Positions 53,571 to 64,000 of a stretch of 64,000 bases of DNA are shown here, one piece after another (position 1 is the first letter of the stretch; each line of letters starts with the position of its first letter). Location: positions 6,038-70,037 of the forward strand of contig CAJJLZ010000005.1 of assembly GCA_905192745.1 (NCBI GenBank), read 5' to 3'. The translations under genes were made by a program, and so were the position numbers. The DNA comes from an uncultured Oscillospiraceae bacterium. GTDB lineage: Bacteria > Bacillota > Clostridia > Oscillospirales > Acutalibacteraceae. The notes under the pieces are model-generated. The model ran no database searches, was not told the DNA's origin, and saw only the letters and a program-made list of their open reading frames with translations.

Positions 53571-53682
53571 GAGGGAGAACGAACCGCGTAAACGGGGATA
53601 ACGGGGATGGGGAAGAGAGGGCCCTCTTTTGCCTGTCGTTCGGCAAGCCCAAACGGATTGGCTCACGTTGGAGGACAACGCC

Positions 53683-54888
53683 ATGGATGATAAATTCGTC
53701 AATCTCGGTCAGGAAATTCAGAACGCCGTGCAGAGGGTACTGGATTCCAAAAGTCTGGCCGATCTGGAGGTTACAATCAACGACACGGTCCGCCGCACCA
53801 CCCAGAAGGTGGCGGACAGCGCCAGAAAAGCGACGGGCGCCGCCCGGCAAACGACATACTATTACCAGACGCCGCCTGCCGCTCCGCCGGGGACTCACGC
53901 GGGACAATATCCGACGCCGCCCCGTTCGGTCCCCTATGCGGCGCCGGTGGCCTATCAGCAGACAGTGACGCGGCGGAAAATCCGCGCGCCCGGCTTGGCG
54001 GCCAGCGTGTTGATGATCGTCGCCGGCTTTCTGGGAGTCATTCCTTTCGGGGGAGCGTTCCTGGCCGTGTTGATTCAACTGATTTCTGAATGGAGCGTTG
54101 GGAATCTGATCGCTACCCTGCTGATGGCGGCTTTTTTCAGCGGCTGCCTGTTTCTGATCCTCCGCGGATTTTCCAATCGCCGGCGGATCCGCCGATTCGT
54201 TCAGTATCAGTCGGTGATTCAGGGAAGGAGTTTCTGCACCGTCTCGGAGCTGACGGCGGCAACGGGAGCAACCGCGGATTTCGTGGTGAAGGATCTTCGA
54301 AAAATGCTTCAGCTGCGGATGTTCCCCGAGGGATACCTCAACGCGGAAGGAACCAGCTTCATGCTGGATTACGCTACCTTCCAGCAATACCAACAGGCGG
54401 AGGAAAGGTCCCGCCGCCGGCAGGAGGAACTGGACAGCAACCCGGAAAAGGCGGCGATTCAGCAGATGCTGACCGAAGGCGGCGCCTACATCCGCCGAAT
54501 CCGGGAAATCAATCTCGAGCTTCCGGCGGAGGATATCAGCCGGAAACTGGATACGCTGGAAACCGTGACCGGAAAAATTTTCGTTTATGTGGAAAAGCAC
54601 CCGGATAAGCTTCCTCAGATCCGGAAATTCCTGTGCTACTACCTTCCCACCACCCTGAAGCTGGTGGAAGCCTACCGTGATCTGGAAAAGCAGCACGCCG
54701 ACAGCAAATCCGCCGGCGGGGCCAAAGAGGAAATTCAGGGCGCGCTGGATAAAATCAACCTCGCCTTCCAAACCCTGCTCGACAATCTGATGCAGGACGA
54801 CCTGCTGGATCTTTCGGCGGATATCTCCACGCTGGAGACGATGATGGCGCAGGAAGGGCTGACCGGCCTGAATTTCCGTCAGTCCTGA
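53683..54888 (+). CDS. xpaC: XpaC-like (5-bromo-4-chloroindolyl phosphate hydrolysis) membrane protein
   Basis: The ATG at 53683 has a GGAGGA RBS. Two central TM helices and a helical C-terminal domain, directly upstream of a TelA-family gene as in Bacillus xpaC-yaaN. Confidence 0.65.
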   Translation: MDDKFVNLGQEIQNAVQRVLDSKSLADLEVTINDTVRRTTQKVADSARKATGAARQTTYYYQTPPAAPPGTHAGQYPTPPRSVPYAAPVAYQQTVTRRKIRAPGLAASVLMIVAGFLGVIPFGGAFLAVLIQLISEWSVGNLIATLLMAAFFSGCLFLILRGFSNRRRIRRFVQYQSVIQGRSFCTVSELTAATGATADFVVKDLRKMLQLRMFPEGYLNAEGTSFMLDYATFQQYQQAEERSRRRQEELDSNPEKAAIQQMLTEGGAYIRRIREINLELPAEDISRKLDTLETVTGKIFVYVEKHPDKLPQIRKFLCYYLPTTLKLVEAYRDLEKQHADSKSAGGAKEEIQGALDKINLAFQTLLDNLMQDDLLDLSADISTLETMMAQEGLTGLNFRQS

Positions 54889-54948: not shown

Positions 54949-56094
54949 ATGTCTGACACTATGCAGGAAATGCCCACCCTGACGCTGGATCCCGGTGCCG
55001 CCTCCGCCGCGCCTTCGGTCTCTCCGGCGAATACGGCGGCAAAGGAAGAGGAAACCATCGTTCCTGTTGAGCAGATGAAGCTGACGGAACAGGAACAGCA
55101 GATGGTGGATTCGTTCGTCCCGAAAATCGATCTGCGGGATTCCCATCTCGTGCTGCAGTACGGTTCCGGCGCACAGAAGAAAATTGCCGACTTTTCCGAG
55201 AATGTGCTTGGTTCCGTCCGCACGAAGGATCTGGGTGAAATCGGCGAGATGCTGTCGGGTGTGGTCACCGAGCTGAAAAGCTTCGATGTGGAGGAAGAGA
55301 AAGGCCTTTTCGGCTTTTTCAAGCGGAGCTCGAACAAAATCACGGCGATGAAGGTCAGGTACGACAAGGCGGAGGGCAACATCAATAAAATCTGCGGCGT
55401 ACTCGAAAACCATCAGATTCAGCTGATGAAGGATATCTCCCTGCTGGATAAGATGTACGAGCTGAACACCGTGTATTTCAAGGAGCTTTGCCTGTATATC
55501 ATCGCCGGGAAGAAAAAGCTGAACATAGTGCGGGAAACCGACCTCGCCGCTCTCGCGGAAAAGGCAAAGCAGAGCGGGCTGGCGGAGGACGCGCAGGCGG
55601 CGAACGACCTTGCGGCCCTCTGCGACCGTTTTGAGAAAAAGCTGCACGATCTGGAACTGACCCGGATGATTTCCATCCAAATGGCCCCCCAGATCCGGAT
55701 GATACAGAACAACAACACCCTGATGTCGGATAAAATCCAGTCCACGCTGGTCAACACCATTCCGCTCTGGAAGAGCCAGATGGTTCTGGCCCTGGGGCTG
55801 GAACATTCCCGTCAGGCGGCGAGCGCTCAGCGGGAGGTCGCCGACATGACCAACGAACTGCTGAAAAAGAACGCCGACGCCCTGAAAATGGCGACGGTGG
55901 ATATTGCGCGGGAATCCGAACGGGGCGTGGTGGATATCGAGACTCTGCAGCACACCAACCAAAGCCTGATCTCCACACTGGACGAGGTCCTTCAGATTCA
56001 GGAGGAGGGACGGCAGAAACGTCAGGAGGCCGAGCGGGAGCTTTCCCGTCTGGAGGGCGAGCTCAAACAGAAGCTGCTGGATATTCGCGGATAA
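54949..56094 (+). CDS. telA: TelA-family toxic anion resistance protein
   Basis: 381 aa, all-helical, with TelA-like blocks (LQYGSGAQKKIADFS, LTRMISIQMAPQIRMIQNNN). Confidence 0.8.
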   Translation: MSDTMQEMPTLTLDPGAASAAPSVSPANTAAKEEETIVPVEQMKLTEQEQQMVDSFVPKIDLRDSHLVLQYGSGAQKKIADFSENVLGSVRTKDLGEIGEMLSGVVTELKSFDVEEEKGLFGFFKRSSNKITAMKVRYDKAEGNINKICGVLENHQIQLMKDISLLDKMYELNTVYFKELCLYIIAGKKKLNIVRETDLAALAEKAKQSGLAEDAQAANDLAALCDRFEKKLHDLELTRMISIQMAPQIRMIQNNNTLMSDKIQSTLVNTIPLWKSQMVLALGLEHSRQAASAQREVADMTNELLKKNADALKMATVDIARESERGVVDIETLQHTNQSLISTLDEVLQIQEEGRQKRQEAERELSRLEGELKQKLLDIRG

Positions 56095-56126: not shown

Positions 56127-56176
56127 CTACAGGAGGAAACAAAGGCCGTGACCGCCGTTTCCTCCTGTAGTTTTTT
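56127..56176 (+). terminator. telA terminator
   Basis: CTACAGGAGGAAAC / GTTTCCTCCTGTAG are 14-bp arms followed by a T6 run. Confidence 0.75.
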
Positions 56177-56210
56177 GTTATTTTGTCATTTGAGAAAGGA
56201 TGACGCCGTT

Positions 56211-57164
56211 ATGACTTCCAGCAACAACCGGAAGGTAGTGCTGATCGGCACCGGCATGGTGGGGATGAGCTACGCTTACGCGCTGCTGAACCAGAACGCC
56301 TGCGACGAGCTTGTTCTGATCGACCTGGACAGGGAGCGGGCCAGGGGAGAGGCGATGGATCTGAACCACGGGCTGGCCTTTTCCGCCTCCAGCATGAAAA
56401 TCTACGCCGGGGAATACACCGACTGCGCGAACGCGGATATCGTGGTCATCTGCGCCGGGGTCGCGCAGAAACCGGGGGAATCCCGGCTGGATCTTTTGCA
56501 GCGAAACGCCGCGGTTTTCCGTTCCATTATCGGTCCGGTAACCGAATCCGGCTTTAACGGCATCTTTCTGGTAGCCACCAATCCGGTGGATATCATGACC
56601 CGGATTACCTGTACGCTGTCCGGCTTCAACCCCCGTCGGGTGCTGGGCAGCGGCACCGCGCTGGACACCGCCCGGCTGCGGTACCTGCTCGGGGAGTATT
56701 TCTCGGTCGATCCCCGCAATATGCACGCCTATGTGATTGGGGAGCATGGGGACAGCGAATTCGTCCCCTGGTCTCAGGCAATGATGGCGACCAAGCCGAT
56801 TCTCACCCTGTGTGAGGAGGCCGGGAATTGCCAGTATGCCGACCTGGAAAATATCGCCGCCGAGGTGCGGGGCGCGGCGCAGCAGATCATCAAGGCCAAG
56901 CGGGCCACCTATTACGGGATCGGTATGGCTCTGGTGAGGATCACCAAAGCCATTTTCGGCAATGAAAACAGCGTGCTCACTGTTTCCGCCATGCTGCGGG
57001 GGGAATATGGGGAAAACGGCGTGTATGTCGGCGTTCCCTGTGTCGTCAACCGCAACGGGGTGCGAAAGGTGCTCACTCTTTCCCTGAACGAAGACGAAAA
57101 CCAACGCTTCCGAGCTTCCTGCCGGACGCTGCAGGAATCCTACGCGGAGCTTTCTCTGGAATAA
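56211..57164 (+). CDS. ldh: L-lactate dehydrogenase
   Basis: KVVLIGTGMVGMSYAYAL Rossmann motif and an LDH catalytic block (GEHGDSEF). The ATG lies at 56211. Confidence 0.9.
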   Translation: MTSSNNRKVVLIGTGMVGMSYAYALLNQNACDELVLIDLDRERARGEAMDLNHGLAFSASSMKIYAGEYTDCANADIVVICAGVAQKPGESRLDLLQRNAAVFRSIIGPVTESGFNGIFLVATNPVDIMTRITCTLSGFNPRRVLGSGTALDTARLRYLLGEYFSVDPRNMHAYVIGEHGDSEFVPWSQAMMATKPILTLCEEAGNCQYADLENIAAEVRGAAQQIIKAKRATYYGIGMALVRITKAIFGNENSVLTVSAMLRGEYGENGVYVGVPCVVNRNGVRKVLTLSLNEDENQRFRASCRTLQESYAELSLE

Positions 57165-57985
57165 CGGACCTTCAAATCCTGCCCGGTAGAAACCAACCCA
57201 TCCGCATTAATAAACCGCATGGTCATGGGATCATAATACCGGCTCAGGAGATAATACAGTCCACTCTCGGCATCATACTCATACCCACGGTAGCGGAAGG
57301 GGTTGAGGGCACCCACGGTCGCGGCCAGACTGCCGGTGACGCTGACCGGACGGCCCCACGAGTCGTAGCTGTACTGCACCACCGACGTGCCGGTTTTGTC
57401 AATCAGCCCCACCACGTCGCCCTGCGCGTTGTAGACGTAGTAATACCCCGTACCGTTCAGCAGGAAGCCGACCCGGCGGCCGTCGCCCTCATACATGAAG
57501 AGCAGGATATCATTGCCCTTCTGCATCTTCATGATCTTGCCGTCGGTGTCCCGCCAGTAGGTGGTCGCCGTGCCGTTCACGGTTTTCTTCACCCGCTGGC
57601 CGTCCGCGTCGTACTGGAACGCCATGCTCAGCCCGGTTTTGTTCAGCGTTTTGAGCTGCCGGCAGTCCCACGTCATCGTCATCCCGTCCCGGTAGGCGAG
57701 GGGATTGCCGATCGCGTCGTAGGTGATGCTCTGCCCCTTGTAGGCGGTCAGCAGGTCCTTCCATGTGCTGTCCGTGTAAGAGAAGGTTTCCAGCCCGGTC
57801 ATGCCAGACTCCAGCTCGCCGCTTTCGGAATACGGGTATTCCTGCCGGCTCAGGAGGTTGCCGCCCGCGTCGTAGGCGTAGGTGGTCATCTTGCCCGTGA
57901 TCTGGTTGTTTTCCCAGATCAACTGGTTCAGTCCGTCGTATTTGTACGATATCTTCCGACCGCACTGGTCTGTGATGGTCGCGAT
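57140..57985 (-). pseudogene. Terminal orphan rhs core fragment without toxin domain (copy C)
   Basis: YD-repeat sequence that is near-identical to copies A and B. It has no start codon of its own (the frame opens after a TGA at about 57990). After ...RFINADGLVSTGQ it runs into ldh-flanking sequence and stops at 57140. Confidence 0.75.
57177..57985 (-). repeat. rhs core repeat, copy C
   Basis: Offset 2061 nt from copy B and 4494 nt from copy A. The alternate-frame ORF 57510..57965 shares its C-terminal sequence (about 133 of 135 aa) with 59571..59978 and 62004..62411. Sequence is more diverged at 57920-57985. Confidence 0.9.
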
Positions 57986-58626
57986 GTTCCCGCTGTCGTC
58001 AAAAATTCATCCCAATAAGTATAGAACATACTAAACGCTTTGCTATCTAACGGATAAATAAACAACAAAATATCGGCCCAACTATGGTTTGGCGTGTAAA
58101 TGTGAAATTTGTTTTGAATAAATTTCGTAAAATCTGGAAACAAAGAATTTGTGGGTGCCGTATTTCTGTCTAGAAAATAATTATATCCGCATAAATTGGC
58201 ATACAGTCCTTCCAGTGATTGCGTTCCCAAGAAGAGCTCAGGCTGTTTTCGAATGGTTTCAATTTCCATATACAGTAAAGAGTCTGTTGTCGTATCTGTT
58301 GAAAGCGTATTTTCTTTTTCAGGACAACTCCAATTAGCATATTCCTCAAAGAATTTCTCCAAATGCTTATAAAACTCATAGAAAGCCTGTTCATCCGAGA
58401 TGCAGAAAAAACTAATTATTTTTGCCCAGTGATGGTCGGCATTCATTCGATATTTTTTCTGGATATATTTTTGAAAATCAGATATTATGCAGGACGTATA
58501 ACCTAACTTGTGGAACTGATAGGCAAAAGCGTTATAGAAATAAAACAGTCGATTGAGGGAAGGCTTTCCAATAAGTGCGGACGGATTTTTTTGTACATCT
58601 ATTAGCATTCTATGTATTTGGTCCAT
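57928..58626 (-). CDS. Candidate immunity protein for the orphan toxin (imm2), internally duplicated
   Basis: 232 aa from AT-rich sequence. The AAGGAG RBS overlaps the toxin stop (TTTTAAGGAGCAAAAAACAATG). Two homologous halves of about 95 aa. The last 24 codons read out-of-frame through rhs copy C. Confidence 0.6.
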   Translation of the reverse strand: MDQIHRMLIDVQKNPSALIGKPSLNRLFYFYNAFAYQFHKLGYTSCIISDFQKYIQKKYRMNADHHWAKIISFFCISDEQAFYEFYKHLEKFFEEYANWSCPEKENTLSTDTTTDSLLYMEIETIRKQPELFLGTQSLEGLYANLCGYNYFLDRNTAPTNSLFPDFTKFIQNKFHIYTPNHSWADILLFIYPLDSKAFSMFYTYWDEFLTTAGTSRPSQTSAVGRYRTNTTD

Positions 58627-58639
58627 TGTTTTTTGCTCC

Positions 58640-60695
58640 TTAAAATATTGGTGTAGGTATTACTGTTTTTTCCCCGGTTCCGATAAAGTCGGCAACCCAT
58701 AATGATTCCGGTAGCCCCAGCGGATGAATGTTACAATATACCACTCCATTGAGACGGATGCCAATATGAAATCCGTTTGTACTAATTGCATCTCCACCAC
58801 GAGAAAGGCTTAAAATATACCCCCTTCCGCCGATAAATGTTATGGAAAGATAATCTGCTTTAATTTTGTTCTTACGCAAATATTCAGCCATTTCATTAGC
58901 GGCTTGTACGCATTCATATAATCCAAACTGTCCAGCAATTTGACCTAGCTGTTCCTCTGTTGATAATAGGATACTTTCTGTAATTGCATAGTCTGAAATA
59001 AACTCAGTCATGAAATTTTGAAATTCATTCAAAGCATTATTTAAACTATCTTTTGCGGAGTTTAAGGCATCTGTAGCTTCGCTGACACCAAAAATTGATA
59101 ATACGGTTAATCCACCAAGTACCAATATTTCATCTACAGGTCCTGTGATAACGTCATCAACACCAAACCATTCGCCGGTTTGATCATCGTAATTCACGGG
59201 ATTATTTCCACAATAAGCGAAAAGGTTGGTTCCAACTATACTCGAAGAGTGTATTGAAATGTCCGCATTCACAAACCGCATGGTCATGGGATCATAATAC
59301 CGGCTCAGGAGATAATACAGCCCGGATTCGGCATCATACTCATACCCACGGTAGCGGAAGGGGTTGAGCTGGCCCACGGTCGCGGCCAGACTGCCGGTGA
59401 CGCTGACCGGACGGCCCCACGAGTCGTAGCTGTACTGCACCACCGACGTGCCGGTTTTGTCAATCAGCCCCACCACGTCGCCCTGCGCGTTGTAGACGTA
59501 GTAATACCCCGTACCGTTCAGCAGGAAGCCGACCCGGCGGCCGTCGCCCTCATACATGAAGAGCAGGATATCATTGCCCTTCTGCATCTTCATGATCTTG
59601 CCGTCGGTGTCCCGCCAGTAGGTGGTCGCCGTGCCGTTCACGGTTTTCTTCACCCGCTGGCCGTCCGCGTCGTACTGGAACGCCATGCTCAGCCCGGTTT
59701 TGTTCAGCGTTTTGAGCTGCCGGCAGTCCCACGTCATCGTCATCCCGTCCCGGTAGGCGAGGGGATTGCCGATCGCGTCGTAGGTGATGCTCTGCCCCTT
59801 GTAGGCGGTCAGCAGGTCCTTCCATGTGCTGTCCGTGTAAGAGAAGGTTTCCAGCCCGGTCATGCCAGACTCCAGCTCGCCGCTTTCGGAATACGGGTAT
59901 TCCTGCCGGCTCAGGAGGTTGCCGCCCGCGTCGTAGGCGTAGGTGGTCATCTTGCCCGTGATCTGGTTGTTTTCCCAAACAAGCTGGTTCAGCCCGTCGT
60001 ACCGGTAGGTGATCTTCCGACCGTCCTTGTCCGTGATGGACGTGATATTCCCATTGTCGTCGTAAGCGTAGGTATCGTTCACCAGTGTGCCGGAAATCTG
60101 CGCCTGCGCCGTGTAGTTGTTCACCAGAGTGGTGGTCTGCTGGCCGGTCACCCCGACGAAGGTGCGGTTGAAAACAAGGGCGTACTGCCCGGGCGTGGCG
60201 ACCAGATTGGTGCGGTATTCCCGCCCGAGACTGTCAAAGGTATGGTTGGCTATGGCGCCGACGCCTCCCGCAGCATAGCCGCCGAACATGGTCGAACCGC
60301 TCAGCCGGGAATCCGGGCCGTAGGAATAGGTGTTCTGATAGGTCTGCCCGTCGAAAATGTAGCTTTCGCCGGTGAGGCGGTTCTGGTTGTCGTATTGGTA
60401 CCGCACGGAGGAAACGCTGCCGGAGTCGGGAATGGTGCGCCGCGCCTCCAGCCGTCCGGCGAGGTCGTACTGGTAGTAATGCGACCCGCCGAACGCCTTG
60501 TCGTGGGTGACGGCCAGCGTGCCGTTCGCGTCATACTCGTTCCACAGGATGTAATTGGAGGAATCCTCCGCTTCCATCATCAGCCAGAGCTGCCCGTATT
60601 TGTTGTAGCTGTAATGCCGCGTGTCCCCGTTGCCGTAGGCTGCGAGCTTCAGCTGTCCGCTGTTCGGCCAGTAGGTGTTGCTGATGAGCTGGCGG
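58640..60695 (-). CDS. Orphan rhs C-terminal cassette (copy B core plus distinct toxin tip CT2), no start signals of its own
   Basis: The frame is open from about 60730. Its first ATG is at 60580 with no RBS. The core is identical at protein level to the main gene up to RFVNAD. It then continues NLFAYCGNNPVNYDD and about 190 aa of unique AT-rich sequence containing YECVQAAN and NGFHIGIRLNGVVYCNIHP. Confidence 0.75.
59262..60695 (-). repeat. rhs core repeat, copy B
   Basis: 1434 bp at a constant offset of 2433 nt from copy A. Several alternate-frame ORF translations are identical between the copies, with a few substitutions near 60640-60665. Confidence 0.95.
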
Positions 60696-60705
60696 ACGGC
60701 TGAGG

Positions 60706-60748
60706 GCTGAGGCAGGGCATATTTTCACAGGATATGCCCTGCCTCAGC
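60706..60748. other. Perfect 17-bp hairpin at the imm1 / orphan-cassette boundary
   Basis: GCTGAGGCAGGGCATAT (60706-60722) pairs with ATATGCCCTGCCTCAGC (60732-60748), 10 nt from the end of rhs homology. Confidence 0.7.
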
Positions 60749-60830
60749 GAACATACTTTAATGGGTTATCTTTTTTGCATCCTAATCCTTGATGTGGCTT
60801 TTCCTCAGATAAGAATTTCCTTTCTGATGT

Positions 60831-61025
60831 CTATTTTTCCTTTTTTGGTATTAACTTTGTTAATATAGCAACCAACCAAAAAGCAAAAGATATATAATAT
60901 AACTTTTGAACAACACCATAATCCAATGAAATCACTTTTGTACTGAGTAAGATAAGCAATAGTAAAAATCCCCCAAAATAGGTTGCGCATCCCCATCGAA
61001 CCAATTTTCCGACTTTATACCACAT
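60831..61025 (-). CDS. Candidate immunity protein for the main Rhs toxin (imm1), 64-aa two-TM protein
   Basis: The ATG at 61025 lies 15 nt after the rhs stop, with AAAGGA upstream. Two hydrophobic helices (FGGFLLLLILLS; ISFAFWLVAILTKLI). AT-rich. An overlapping alternative frame (60805..60996) cannot be excluded. Confidence 0.45.
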   Translation of the reverse strand: MWYKVGKLVRWGCATYFGGFLLLLILLSTKVISLDYGVVQKLYYISFAFWLVAILTKLIPKKEK

Positions 61026-61039
61026 ATGAAACTGTCCTT

Positions 61040-64000
61040 TCAACCCAATTGAAATGGGTTATTCGCATAGGGATATTTTCCATATTTGCCATCCCATTCG
61101 GCGTATACATATGGAGTCAACCCATTTCCAGCAGAAGCTCGAGGATCGGTGCAATATGGTTTGTACATGACTATACCATTTCCATGATTAACAGCGCTTT
61201 CTATTGCTTCACACTTAATACGATACTCAGTTTCGTCCTTTAATGCAAAAAGCAAATCACTAATTAACAAACATATTCCACCTCCAGTAGTGCCTTTTAA
61301 TGTATCATATAATCCAATACCTGCTGATATTCCAAGTTCAGCATAAGAGCCTTGTCGTTTATACAAGTCTTTTACATCATTCGGAGGTATAAATGTAATT
61401 TGGTCAGTAACTACAGCAACTCCATAAACTGGACCAGTTATGCATCCCCCGTTAGTCACTCCTCCATCTGGCAGATAATGAAGTTTTTCATTTGGATAAT
61501 ATGTGCAATTTTCGATTCCTCCATCGTATAATTGCATTTCCCAACGTGTCTGACTGCTTAAAGATTCCCACTGCATTCCTGAAGTGTTTCCAACCCAATA
61601 ACGACCAAAAGGATCATAACATGTGATCGGATTGTTTCCGCAATACACAAACATATTGTAGCCAAGGATTCCCTGCCCAGTAGAAACCAACCCATCCGCA
61701 TTCACAAACCGCATGGTCATGGGATCATAATACCGGCTCAGGAGATAATACAGCCCGGATTCGGCATCATACTCATACCCACGGTAGCGGAAGGGGTTGA
61801 GCTGGCCCACGGTCGCGGCCAGACTGCCGGTGACGCTGACCGGACGGCCCCACGAGTCGTAGCTGTACTGCACCACCGACGTGCCGGTTTTGTCAATCAG
61901 CCCCACCACGTCGCCCTGCGCGTTGTAGACGTAGTAATACCCCGTACCGTTCAGCAGGAAGCCGACCCGGCGGCCGTCGCCCTCATACATGAAGAGCAGG
62001 ATATCATTGCCCTTCTGCATCTTCATGATCTTGCCGTCGGTGTCCCGCCAGTAGGTGGTCGCCGTGCCGTTCACGGTTTTCTTCACCCGCTGGCCGTCCG
62101 CGTCGTACTGGAACGCCATGCTCAGCCCGGTTTTGTTCAGCGTTTTGAGCTGCCGGCAGTCCCACGTCATCGTCATCCCGTCCCGGTAGGCGAGGGGATT
62201 GCCGATCGCGTCGTAGGTGATGCTCTGCCCCTTGTAGGCGGTCAGCAGGTCCTTCCATGTGCTGTCCGTGTAAGAGAAGGTTTCCAGCCCGGTCATGCCA
62301 GACTCCAGCTCGCCGCTTTCGGAATACGGGTATTCCTGCCGGCTCAGGAGGTTGCCGCCCGCGTCGTAGGCGTAGGTGGTCATCTTGCCCGTGATCTGGT
62401 TGTTTTCCCAAACAAGCTGGTTCAGCCCGTCGTACCGGTAGGTGATCTTCCGACCGTCCTTGTCCGTGATGGACGTGATATTCCCATTGTCGTCGTAAGC
62501 GTAGGTATCGTTCACCAGTGTGCCGGAAATCTGCGCCTGCGCCGTGTAGTTGTTCACCAGAGTGGTGGTCTGCTGGCCGGTCACCCCGACGAAGGTGCGG
62601 TTGAAAACAAGGGCGTACTGCCCGGGCGTGGCGACCAGATTGGTGCGGTATTCCCGCCCGAGACTGTCAAAGGTATGGTTGGCTATGGCGCCGACGCCTC
62701 CCGCAGCATAGCCGCCGAACATGGTCGAACCGCTCAGCCGGGAATCCGGGCCGTAGGAATAGGTGTTCTGATAGGTCTGCCCGTCGAAAATGTAGCTTTC
62801 GCCGGTGAGGCGGTTCTGGTTGTCGTATTGGTACCGCACGGAGGAAACGCTGCCGGAGTCGGGAATGGTGCGCCGCGCCTCCAGCCGTCCGGCGAGGTCG
62901 TACTGGTAGTAATGCGACCCGCCGAACGCCTTGTCGTGGGTGACGGCCAGCGTGCCGTTCGCGTCATACTCGTTCCACAGGATGTAATTGGAGGAATCCT
63001 CCGCTTCCATCATCAGCCAGAGCTGCCCGTATTTGTTGTAGCTGTAATGCCGCGTGTCCCCGTTGCCGTAGGTCGCAAGCTTCAGCTGCCCGCTGTTCGG
63101 CCAGTAGGTGTTGCTGATGAGCTGGCGGCTGCCGGACCCGTTTACCAGCCTCACCGTCTGCTGGTTCCCCAGCGCGTCGTAGGTGAAGAAGTACTGGAAC
63201 CCGTTATGGGTGATGGCGGAAAGGCGGCTCCGGCTGTCGTAGCCGTAGGTGTTGGAGGCGTTCCCGCTGCTCACCCCCGTCAGCCGGTCCGCGCTGTCAT
63301 AGGTGTAGCTGGTCACGTTCCCCTTCGGGTCGGTTACGCTGTTCACCAGACCGCTCATCCCGTCCACGTCAAAGGTGGTAACCTTCCCGCGCTGGTCATA
63401 GGTTTTGGTCACATAATGCCCCAGCGCGTCGTATTCCTGGCTTGTCTTCAGATAGGGGTTGGAGGTGTTCAGCGTGCCGCTGGTGGTCACCGTCCCCATC
63501 CATGTCTGGGTCACGTTGCCGCTTGCGCCGTCATAGCCAAAACGGAATCCAAGCCCGGTCTGGTTCGACCGCGCCGCCACCAGCCGGTGCTTGTTCGAGG
63601 TGTCGTAGGTATAGCTGTAGCTTTCGCTCAGCGCTTCGTCGGTTACACCGACTAACTCGTTGCTCGATTCATCATAGTCGTAAATCTTTTTGTTCTGCGC
63701 GTTGTCGCTCGCCGAGAGCAGATTGCCGGTCTTATCGTCATAAGCGTAGGCTGTCCCCGTCGCGTCGATGTTCAGGCAGAAGTCGTCGAACCACACCTTG
63801 TTCGCGTTTTTGTAGTAGATGGCGTAGAACGAAACCGAACGGATTTTTTTGTTCCTGTTGGTCTTGGACGGCCCGACCGCCTACGACACGAACTGCGCCC
63901 CCGTCGAGTCCGGGTTGAAGGGGACAACCTTCCACTCGGTTGTACCGTCGGCGAAGTATATCCCCAGATCCAGCGCAAAATACCGCGATGACGCCGTGAT
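61040..64000 (-). CDS. Rhs/YD-repeat polymorphic toxin, C-terminal ~980 codons (partial, runs off window; in-frame TAG at 63881-63883)
   Basis: Dense YD repeats (YxYDxxGN), an RHS core end motif (RYYDPMTMRFVNADGL...NMFVYCGNNPITCYDPFG), then about 190 aa of unique AT-rich C-terminal tip (CT1). The same frame stays open on both sides of the TAG, up to position 64000. Confidence 0.85.
61672..63128 (-). repeat. rhs core repeat, copy A (inside the main gene)
   Basis: This is the master copy matched by copies B and C. Confidence 0.95.

Follow-up and report, generated by a model that had tools for sequence, protein, structure and literature searches.

The minus strand of positions 57140-64000 of the DNA analyzed here, a 64,000-nt stretch (the window) of contig CAJJLZ010000005.1 from an uncultured gut bacterium of the Oscillospiraceae type (class Clostridia; assembly GCA_905192745.1), very probably carries a WapA-like Rhs/YD-repeat polymorphic toxin locus with an orphan cassette, located downstream of ldh, whose main gene is interrupted by an amber codon. 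The main gene ends in a C-terminal tip, CT1, and is followed by a small predicted immunity gene, imm1; a second core fused to another tip, CT2, precedes a gene for a 232-aa protein, imm2; and a third core remains as a stub. If the locus works as its family does, a large Sec-exported protein would build a YD-repeat shell around a C-terminal toxin, which would be cut off at the end-of-core motif and delivered to neighboring bacteria, while the small gene right after each tip would protect the producer. Orphan cassette 2 would then be silent as a weapon, with its immunity kept, and its tip could be moved onto the main gene by recombination through a 1.4-kb identical core.

The rhs array and its order

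We found three co-linear copies of an rhs core, named A, B, and C (Table 1), on the minus strand at fixed offsets of 2433 and 2061 nt. A base-by-base comparison places every mismatch between A and B at the 5′ edge (positions 60640, 60641, 60644, and 60656 of B) and leaves 1378 nt perfectly identical, while copy C over 57196-58001 has 36 mismatches to B, most of them at both edges, corresponding to ~95% identity. A repeat this long cannot have arisen by chance. A first-pass annotation of this DNA had described a three-copy rhs array on this strand, which the repeat coordinates bear out, and had set A and B at an offset of 2433 nt, which holds. It had also placed the start of A at 61672, which does not hold: 23 nt are common to A (61672-61694) and C (57178-57200) and absent from B (repeat family D3), which explains its slightly inconsistent coordinates for A. 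Nor are A and B identical at the protein level, as it had stated, since their 5′ edge reads LKLATYG in A and LKLAAYG in B.

Both profiles that this annotation had associated with the array are present in all three copies, with E values of 1.7e-33, 8e-22, and 7.9e-15 for RHS_repeat (Pfam PF05593) and scores of 68.2, 72.6, and 47.9 bits for the RHS core TIGR03696 (cut-off, 32.5 bits) in A, B, and C, respectively; TIGR01643 was above its cut-off too in the NCBIfam search. The core equivalog of the Escherichia coli RHS element, NF041261, was not reached (93.8 bits against a cut-off of 2000), indicating an Rhs protein of a different lineage. By eye, the end-of-core demarcation motif NNPxxxxDPxG is canonical in A, where it reads CGNNPITCYDPFGR, and has the P replaced by Q in B (CGNNPVNYDDQTGE). 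The GC fraction is 0.35-0.43 over 57850-59350 and 60700-61750, compared with 0.54-0.63 in the cores, and the tips have 35-38% GC against ~60%, in agreement with the initial description of the tips and small genes as AT-richer. A GC-rich core joined to AT-rich tips is the classical Rhs mosaic.

The second core was proposed to be start-less and fused to a different tip, and it is indeed 5′-truncated, with neither its own start nor an export signal. Its frame opens right after a stop at ~60725, its homology to A begins at 60695-60700, and the ORF (open reading frame) called mechanically from an ATG spans 58640-60580. No promoter-like site was found upstream of it, the promoter and terminator scans being at chance level. 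The interval between imm1 and this core contains a perfect hairpin (60706-60748), unique in the window, with an RNA folding energy of -33.5 kcal/mol (z = -6.9) and no T-run after it, which may end or stabilize the main transcript and insulate the orphan.

Copy C ends at position 53 of the 76 positions of the TIGR03696 profile, reading ...RFINADGLVSTGQ, and then continues into the 3′ end of the convergent ldh gene, inside which its stop lies; it therefore has neither an end-of-core motif nor a toxin. The third core is thus the stub reported initially, a tip-less truncated remnant abutting ldh. On metagenome contig L008, which is otherwise co-linear, the copy matching C carries an intact third tip (CT3) and a 202-aa gene. 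Copy C is what remains of a third cassette, the tip and immunity gene of which were deleted.

Two observations would fit an assembly artefact, a collapsed or duplicated repeat in a genome that really has a single rhs gene with a single tip: the 1378-nt identity of A and B exceeds the span of short reads, and most public contigs with these genes break at the repeat edges. However, each junction of the array was reproduced on independent metagenome contigs. L007 (3886 nt, from another sample) carries CT1, imm1, the whole of core B, CT2, and imm2 at 99.7% identity; L001-L004 carry CT2, imm2, C, and ldh and continue into the same neighbors (TelA, PF10112, CitMHS, and CBAH); L005 and L006 span the passage from the unique part of the main gene into the core. 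Given the connections from main gene to core, core to CT1, imm1 to core, and core to CT2, the order in the window is the only linear path. Moreover, CT1-imm1 has core sequence on both sides, so that the unique segments require an array; L040 and L004, which come from the same sample, carry both unique nodes (imm1 and CT2-imm2-C-ldh); and copy C, at ~5% divergence, is not a collapsed copy. We thus regard an artefact as highly improbable.

Metagenome contigs suggest that cassette content differs between strains, a comparison that the first-pass annotation had proposed. L009 carries CT1, imm1, a core, and CT3 with the 202-aa gene, CT3 standing where the window has CT2, and L008 carries CT2, imm2, a core, and CT3 with the 202-aa gene, CT3 taking the place of the stub. 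Downstream of the 202-aa gene, the two contigs (L008, 3533-3879; L009, 3689-3949) restart in the part of the main gene that precedes the YD shell (TGTAYFDCFQLENAMVASDYNLL...), suggesting a further, longer orphan in some strains. In L005 and L006, the CT1 cassette is missing and the main gene runs straight into CT2, an arrangement expected from recombination between A and B and consistent with the tip-swap model. Against this stands the possibility that a short-read assembler took the wrong exit from the perfect 1.4-kb repeat, so that the junction is consistent with swapping and is not proof of it. L019 likewise has an orphan core fragment and small genes after a full-length gene; L025 looked frameshifted and was left out of the comparisons. 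Close relatives occur in metagenome-assembled genomes (MAGs) labeled Oscillospiraceae, Acutalibacter, Faecousia, Ruminococcus, Eubacteriales, and Clostridia, and two weaker hits are labeled Akkermansia and Lachnospiraceae. Several contigs bearing the locus are labeled as human-gut metagenome assemblies.

A nonsense codon in the main gene, and export

The main gene had been presented as a large YD-repeat gene, a description that missed an in-frame TAG at 63881-63883. The frame upstream of this codon is open to the window edge (63884-64000), and the 946-codon frame downstream is intact, with no further stops. On contig L005 the site reads CAG, and gene calling gave a single cut product of 1449 aa for the main gene. 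L006, from an independent sample, has the same TAG as the window, which argues for a genuine nonsense allele that is segregating and against a random error. Of the 31 long ORFs of the window, 3 end in TAG, so that the standard genetic code applies; reassignment of TAG was rejected on this ground, TAG being an ordinary stop here.

Could the locus nevertheless be fully armed, the TAG being a sequencing error or being bypassed, so that the main gene still delivers CT1? The CAG of the sister contig L005 and the intact 2.8-kb frame that follows the codon speak for it. However, the same TAG in the independent sample and its use to terminate other long ORFs of the window speak against it, and translation restarted at the first possible site, a GTG at 63796, would yield a protein that lacks its N-terminal half and any export signal. 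We consider this explanation improbable. As a product restarted after the TAG would be devoid of the N-terminal part and of any export signal, this strain is predicted to be unable to deliver CT1, and the locus is probably disarmed and kept mainly for its immunity genes.

The N-terminus of the main gene lies outside the window. L005 extends the gene by 475 aa upstream, a region in which YD-repeat matches are marginal and no other domain was detected. A relative, L027, overlaps the 5′ end of L005 with 71% identity over 109 aa; it starts with a typical Sec signal peptide (MEGIRNRTRLFLRTLAAICSAALLVQTAPLSAIA) and contains a DNRLRE domain (63.2 bits). Signal-peptide-like starts are also found in two full-length relatives, P0007 (2153 aa, with a CT1-family tip and a CBM96 domain; the protein of contig L030) and L019 (2232 aa). 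Based on these Sec-type signal peptides, we infer WapA-like export, as opposed to export linked to a type VI secretion system (T6SS) or of the CdiA/CdiB type. It weighs against this assignment that the signal peptide is read from relatives, even the closest of them sharing just 71% identity with the gene over the 109 aa in common. There were no secretion-system genes adjoining the array among the flanking genes. The comparison with Rhs and CdiA loci made at first therefore stands for the orphan cassette arrays and not for the export route, which appears WapA-like rather than CdiA-type or T6SS.

Tips and their partner proteins

CT1 comprises the 186 residues after the motif CGNNPITCYDPFGR. It has no Pfam or NCBIfam match, and PDB sequence and profile searches gave no hit. 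Scanning 1.84 billion representatives (50%-identity clusters) exhaustively with HMMER returned only 19 matches, ~12 of which cover residues 38-184 and align with the window tip at 28-55% identity; one of the 19, the ankyrin-repeat protein P0015, is spurious. Word-indexed searches for homologues of CT1, the CT2 domain, and the 232-aa protein retrieved either no sequence or the query alone. In every CT1 relative long enough to show it, the Rhs end motif lies just upstream. P0011, P0016, and P0019 match residues 1-40 only, indicating a separate 37-residue linker that can stand ahead of different tips; in P0016, it lies ahead of a CHAP domain, which belongs to a family of peptidoglycan amidases and peptidases.

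In the alignments, the positions of CT1 that do not vary are chiefly Gly, Pro, and aromatic residues; no acidic, His, or Cys set is invariant. An alignment-based AlphaFold2 (AF2) model (predicted local distance difference test, pLDDT, 65; predicted template modeling score, pTM, 0.53) contains a small sheet and a long helical hairpin, whose tip is hydrophobic and Gly/Ser/Ala-rich (GISAGIGLYDTLKGTTGGGICLLISDLLFAL); the single-sequence AF2 model had a pLDDT of 30 and was not usable. Foldseek comparison of the model with the PDB gave no fold match (best E, 0.55), the matches to FemA and FemX coming from the helical hairpin and not being significant. The statement of the first-pass annotation that neither tip is a nameable toxin domain accordingly holds for CT1, which profile and fold comparisons leave undescribed, and fails for CT2, which is a Tox-PL-2 domain (PF15643).

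The ATG of imm1 lies 14 nt past the rhs stop and has an AAGGA 9 nt upstream. A small ORF encoding a protein with several transmembrane (TM) segments is found directly downstream of the CT1-family tip in all six loci examined, so that the small gene after tip 1 is conserved beside homologous tips in other genomes. On L029, L030, and L031/L032, two-TM proteins of 64-74 aa follow CT1-family tips with 31-34% identity to imm1 and a common pattern (..VRWxC..., ...YY....W....TKxIPK). L013 and L033 encode longer versions with four hydrophobic segments that look like duplicated units. The initial prediction of a tiny membrane protein after CT1 is right as to the presence of a small TM gene and wrong as to its frame, the real one being 60831-61025 and not the 61/63-aa ORF. 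The latter, read in another frame (60805-60996), is not conserved (E 0.17), whereas the 64-aa frame reaches a BLASTP E of 1e-9 against its L031 counterpart (one pair compared). Gene predictions in public assemblies pick the 64-aa frame on at least 11 short contigs and the 61-aa ORF on 2.

Two contigs add detail. Positions 100-1765 of L013, from an Oscillospiraceae MAG, hold a diverged tip resembling CT1, which a 146-aa four-TM ORF overlaps; a truncated orphan core follows. The three-part layout of the window thus recurs in another species. On L044 (86-823), a low-coverage contig (coverage, 1.5), the ORF upstream of imm1 has 145 aa and is separated from it by a 105-nt gap; this short ORF could reflect a truncated CT1 or sequencing errors.

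CT1 and imm1 are predicted to act as toxin and immunity protein on the basis of the architecture. As to the site of action, our preferred reading, to which we give about an even chance of being right, is that CT1 acts at the target membrane or envelope, not in the cytoplasm; it is proposed because its putative protector is membrane-embedded, catalytic signatures are absent, and its linker is shared with a cell-wall hydrolase tip. A narrower version, in which CT1 would be non-enzymatic and membrane-disrupting, is tentative. Two features weigh against these proposals. No catalytic-looking invariant residues were found, and the hydrophobic stretches of CT1 are 11-15 residues long, with no 19-residue TM-grade segment in most members. 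The mode of action is drawn mainly from the kind of immunity protein.

Most characterized Rhs and WapA tips act in the cytoplasm, and CT1 might likewise be a cytoplasm-acting enzyme (a nuclease, an NADase, or similar), with the small membrane protein being, for example, an entry or export helper instead of an immunity protein. The absence of a clear TM segment in CT1 and the compact alpha/beta domain of the AF2 model agree with this alternative, as does the general precedent. However, none of the six loci has an ORF of cytosolic type after CT1, whose only conserved neighbor is the TM protein, with the start-stop proximity typical of toxin-immunity pairs. CT1 also has no invariant residue set typical of nucleases or NADases and no fold match to any enzyme, and its linker is common to a CHAP tip that acts outside the membrane. 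We find a cytoplasmic enzyme doubtful. Coming back to action at the envelope, a more specific proposal, which we put forward with considerable reserve, is that CT1 and its 64-aa partner constitute a new, Clostridia-restricted class of Rhs-delivered toxin, with non-enzymatic action on the cytoplasmic membrane or envelope of the target from outside via the Gly/Ser/Ala-rich hairpin and with the two-TM protein neutralizing it in the membrane. If this is true, no payload acting on membranes would have been described before CT1 for a Sec-exported (WapA-type) Rhs system.

CT2 matches Tox-PL-2 at 53.5 bits, above the gathering cut-off of 25 bits. Zhang et al. 2012 (PMC3482391) defined Tox-PL-2 as a papain-fold peptidase, then known only from polymorphic toxin systems; they listed C, NxxH, and DN as conserved residues and named Imm73 as the partner. 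A later survey considers thiol peptidase or transglutaminase action possible (PMC10318531). We found no experimental study of any Tox-PL-2 member in the literature. The Cys signature (LYECVQ) and NxxH (NGFH) are present in CT2. The third motif appears to be CN (VVYCNIH) where DN is expected, in a register read without a family alignment. This CN, together with an end motif reading DDQTGEW instead of DPxG, raises the possibility that CT2 is not fully active. Right after the end-of-core motif, a TM-grade hydrophobic helix is present in CT2 (58643-59261; ILVLGGLTVLSIFGV) and in CT3 (ALGGGIALLTALAKAVGVAALAAIGAAAGVVVG), and not in CT1; it may serve cytoplasm-acting tips for entry or translocation.

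The 232-aa protein imm2 begins 13 nt after CT2, a gap that agrees with the tight coupling reported at first. It is an internal tandem duplication of a ~105-aa unit, whose halves are 29% identical (E 2e-11). No Pfam match was obtained even at E up to 10; it is therefore not Imm73, an identity that we rejected for this reason. CT2 sequence directly precedes imm2 on all contigs shown that extend far enough upstream to be mapped. Weighing against an immunity role, the homologue search returned only imm2 itself, so that the role is assigned by position. The last ~24 codons (57928-58001) are read from core copy C in another frame, and the junction with the next cassette has probably replaced the original C-terminus. 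The locus had been singled out as a source of undescribed effector-immunity pairs, which remains apt for CT1/imm1 and for the 232-aa protein and does not apply to CT2, a known domain.

Array boundary and relation to known systems

The Rhs-derived sequence ends at most 13 nt from the ldh stop, which marks the edge of the island. Beyond ldh are a TelA-family gene (54949-56094) and a PF10112-family gene (53629-54888), and synteny in L001-L004 places a CitMHS transporter gene and a choloylglycine (bile-salt) hydrolase family gene (CBAH) next. The array is thus flanked by housekeeping-type genes. The features of the locus are listed in Table 1.

Table 1. Features of the rhs array and its boundary (window positions)
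Feature	Position	Strand	Basis
Main rhs frame before the nonsense codon, final part of a CBM-like domain ahead of the YD-repeat shell	63884-64000	minus	Translation; frame continuous with the 1449-aa cut ORF of L005
In-frame TAG nonsense codon	63881-63883	minus	TAG in window and L006; CAG (Gln) in L005
Main rhs frame after the TAG: YD-repeat shell, TIGR03696 core, tip CT1, TGA stop	61040-63880	minus	RHS_repeat E 1.7e-33; TIGR03696 68.2 bits
rhs core repeat, copy A	61695-63128	minus	Copy B + 2433 nt, 4 mismatches in 1434 nt
Diverged core end with demarcation motif GLVSTGQGILGYNMFVYCGNNPITCYDPFGR	61601-61694	minus	Translation; inside TIGR03696 match, residues 674-759
Pre-toxin linker of CT1, 37 aa, YWVGNTSGMQWESLSSQTRWEMQLYDGGIENCTYY...	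61490-61600	minus	Linker-only matches P0011, P0016, P0019
CT1 toxin domain (predicted), ~145 aa, undescribed family	61043-61489	minus	Searches, alignments, AF2 model
imm1, 64-aa two-TM protein, predicted CT1 immunity	60831-61025	minus	Conserved small TM genes after CT1-family tips
Perfect 17-bp stem, 9-nt loop	60706-60748	minus	Between imm1 and start of orphan core B
Orphan rhs fragment, core copy B and tip CT2, without its own N-terminus	58640-60724	minus	RHS_repeat 8e-22; TIGR03696 72.6 bits
rhs core repeat, copy B	59262-60695	minus	Repeat search and base-by-base comparison
Tox-PL-2 papain-fold toxin domain of CT2	58685-58957	minus	PF15643 E 3.1e-14, 53.5 bits, profile 3-102/103
imm2, 232-aa protein, predicted CT2 immunity	57928-58626	minus	Position after CT2; tandem duplication
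rhs core copy C, truncated remnant	Frame 57140-58006; repeat about 57196-58001	minus	Repeat comparison, translation, TIGR03696
L-lactate dehydrogenase gene ldh, array boundary	56148-57164	plus	PF00056 and PF02866 on identical-length product in L001-L004

The structure and logic of the locus match those of orphan rhs/cdiA-CT arrays and of WapA-type Gram-positive Rhs toxins. Enterobacterial Rhs toxins are delivered by a PAAR/VgrG-linked T6SS. Orphan rhs/cdiA-CT cassettes and their recombination onto the main gene are established (Poole et al. 2011, PMC3150448; Koskiniemi et al. 2014, PMC3967940), and tip swapping was shown experimentally in Salmonella (PMC3967940). As in the enterobacterial orphan rhs-CT arrays, the main gene is followed by 5′-truncated core fragments, each with a different tip and an immunity gene (predicted in the present locus), the long near-identical core homology permits recombination onto the main gene, and GC-rich cores contrast with AT-rich tips. 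Unlike in those arrays, the host is a Gram-positive-type Clostridia gut bacterium, relatives carry Sec signal peptides in place of PAAR/VgrG-linked T6SS delivery, the main gene is interrupted by a nonsense codon, and the last orphan is a tip-less stub.

The characterized tips of Bacillus subtilis WapA are tRNases that act in the cytoplasm, which sets them apart from CT1, for which action at the envelope is proposed. In contrast to WapA, relatives have DNRLRE (L027) and CBM96 (P0007) domains and not the WapA wall-binding repeats. The locus nevertheless has in common with WapA of B. subtilis and with the WapA-type Rhs of Streptococcus suis (PMC12704120) a YD/Rhs shell, a polymorphic C-terminal toxin, and an immunity gene, predicted in the present locus, directly downstream, as well as a Sec-type signal peptide, seen here in the relatives.

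As for the tips, CT2 agrees with the Tox-PL-2 family in matching the whole profile, in its place at the C terminus of an Rhs protein, and in having the Cys and NxxH, and differs from it in apparently having CN instead of DN and, as partner, an unrelated, tandem-duplicated 232-aa protein with no homologue found (an ORFan) instead of Imm73. Pore-forming colicins and the ionophoric CdiA-CT of E. coli EC93 are membrane-acting toxins with small integral-membrane immunity proteins. CT1 resembles such bacteriocin-type toxins in having a small multi-TM gene directly after it, no obvious catalytic residues, and a hydrophobic Gly/Ala/Ser-rich hairpin, and differs from the colicins and EC93 CdiA-CT in showing no sequence or fold similarity to them and in its hydrophobic segments of just 11-15 residues.

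What is new is the host lineage, the pairing of CT1 with a two-TM protein, a non-Imm73 partner for Tox-PL-2, and a natural knock-out allele. The locus leaves the understanding of Rhs systems unchanged and will not surprise a specialist, and is a useful catalogue entry: a clean orphan-cassette example in an uncultured human-gut Clostridia lineage, in which contact-dependent antagonism is poorly studied. Public metagenomes show cassette gain, loss, and possibly swapping at the same site, together with a segregating knock-out of the delivery gene. Such an allele with intact immunity genes fits strains that give up attack and keep immunity, and the CT1/imm1 and CT2/232-aa pairs are small and cheap to test experimentally.

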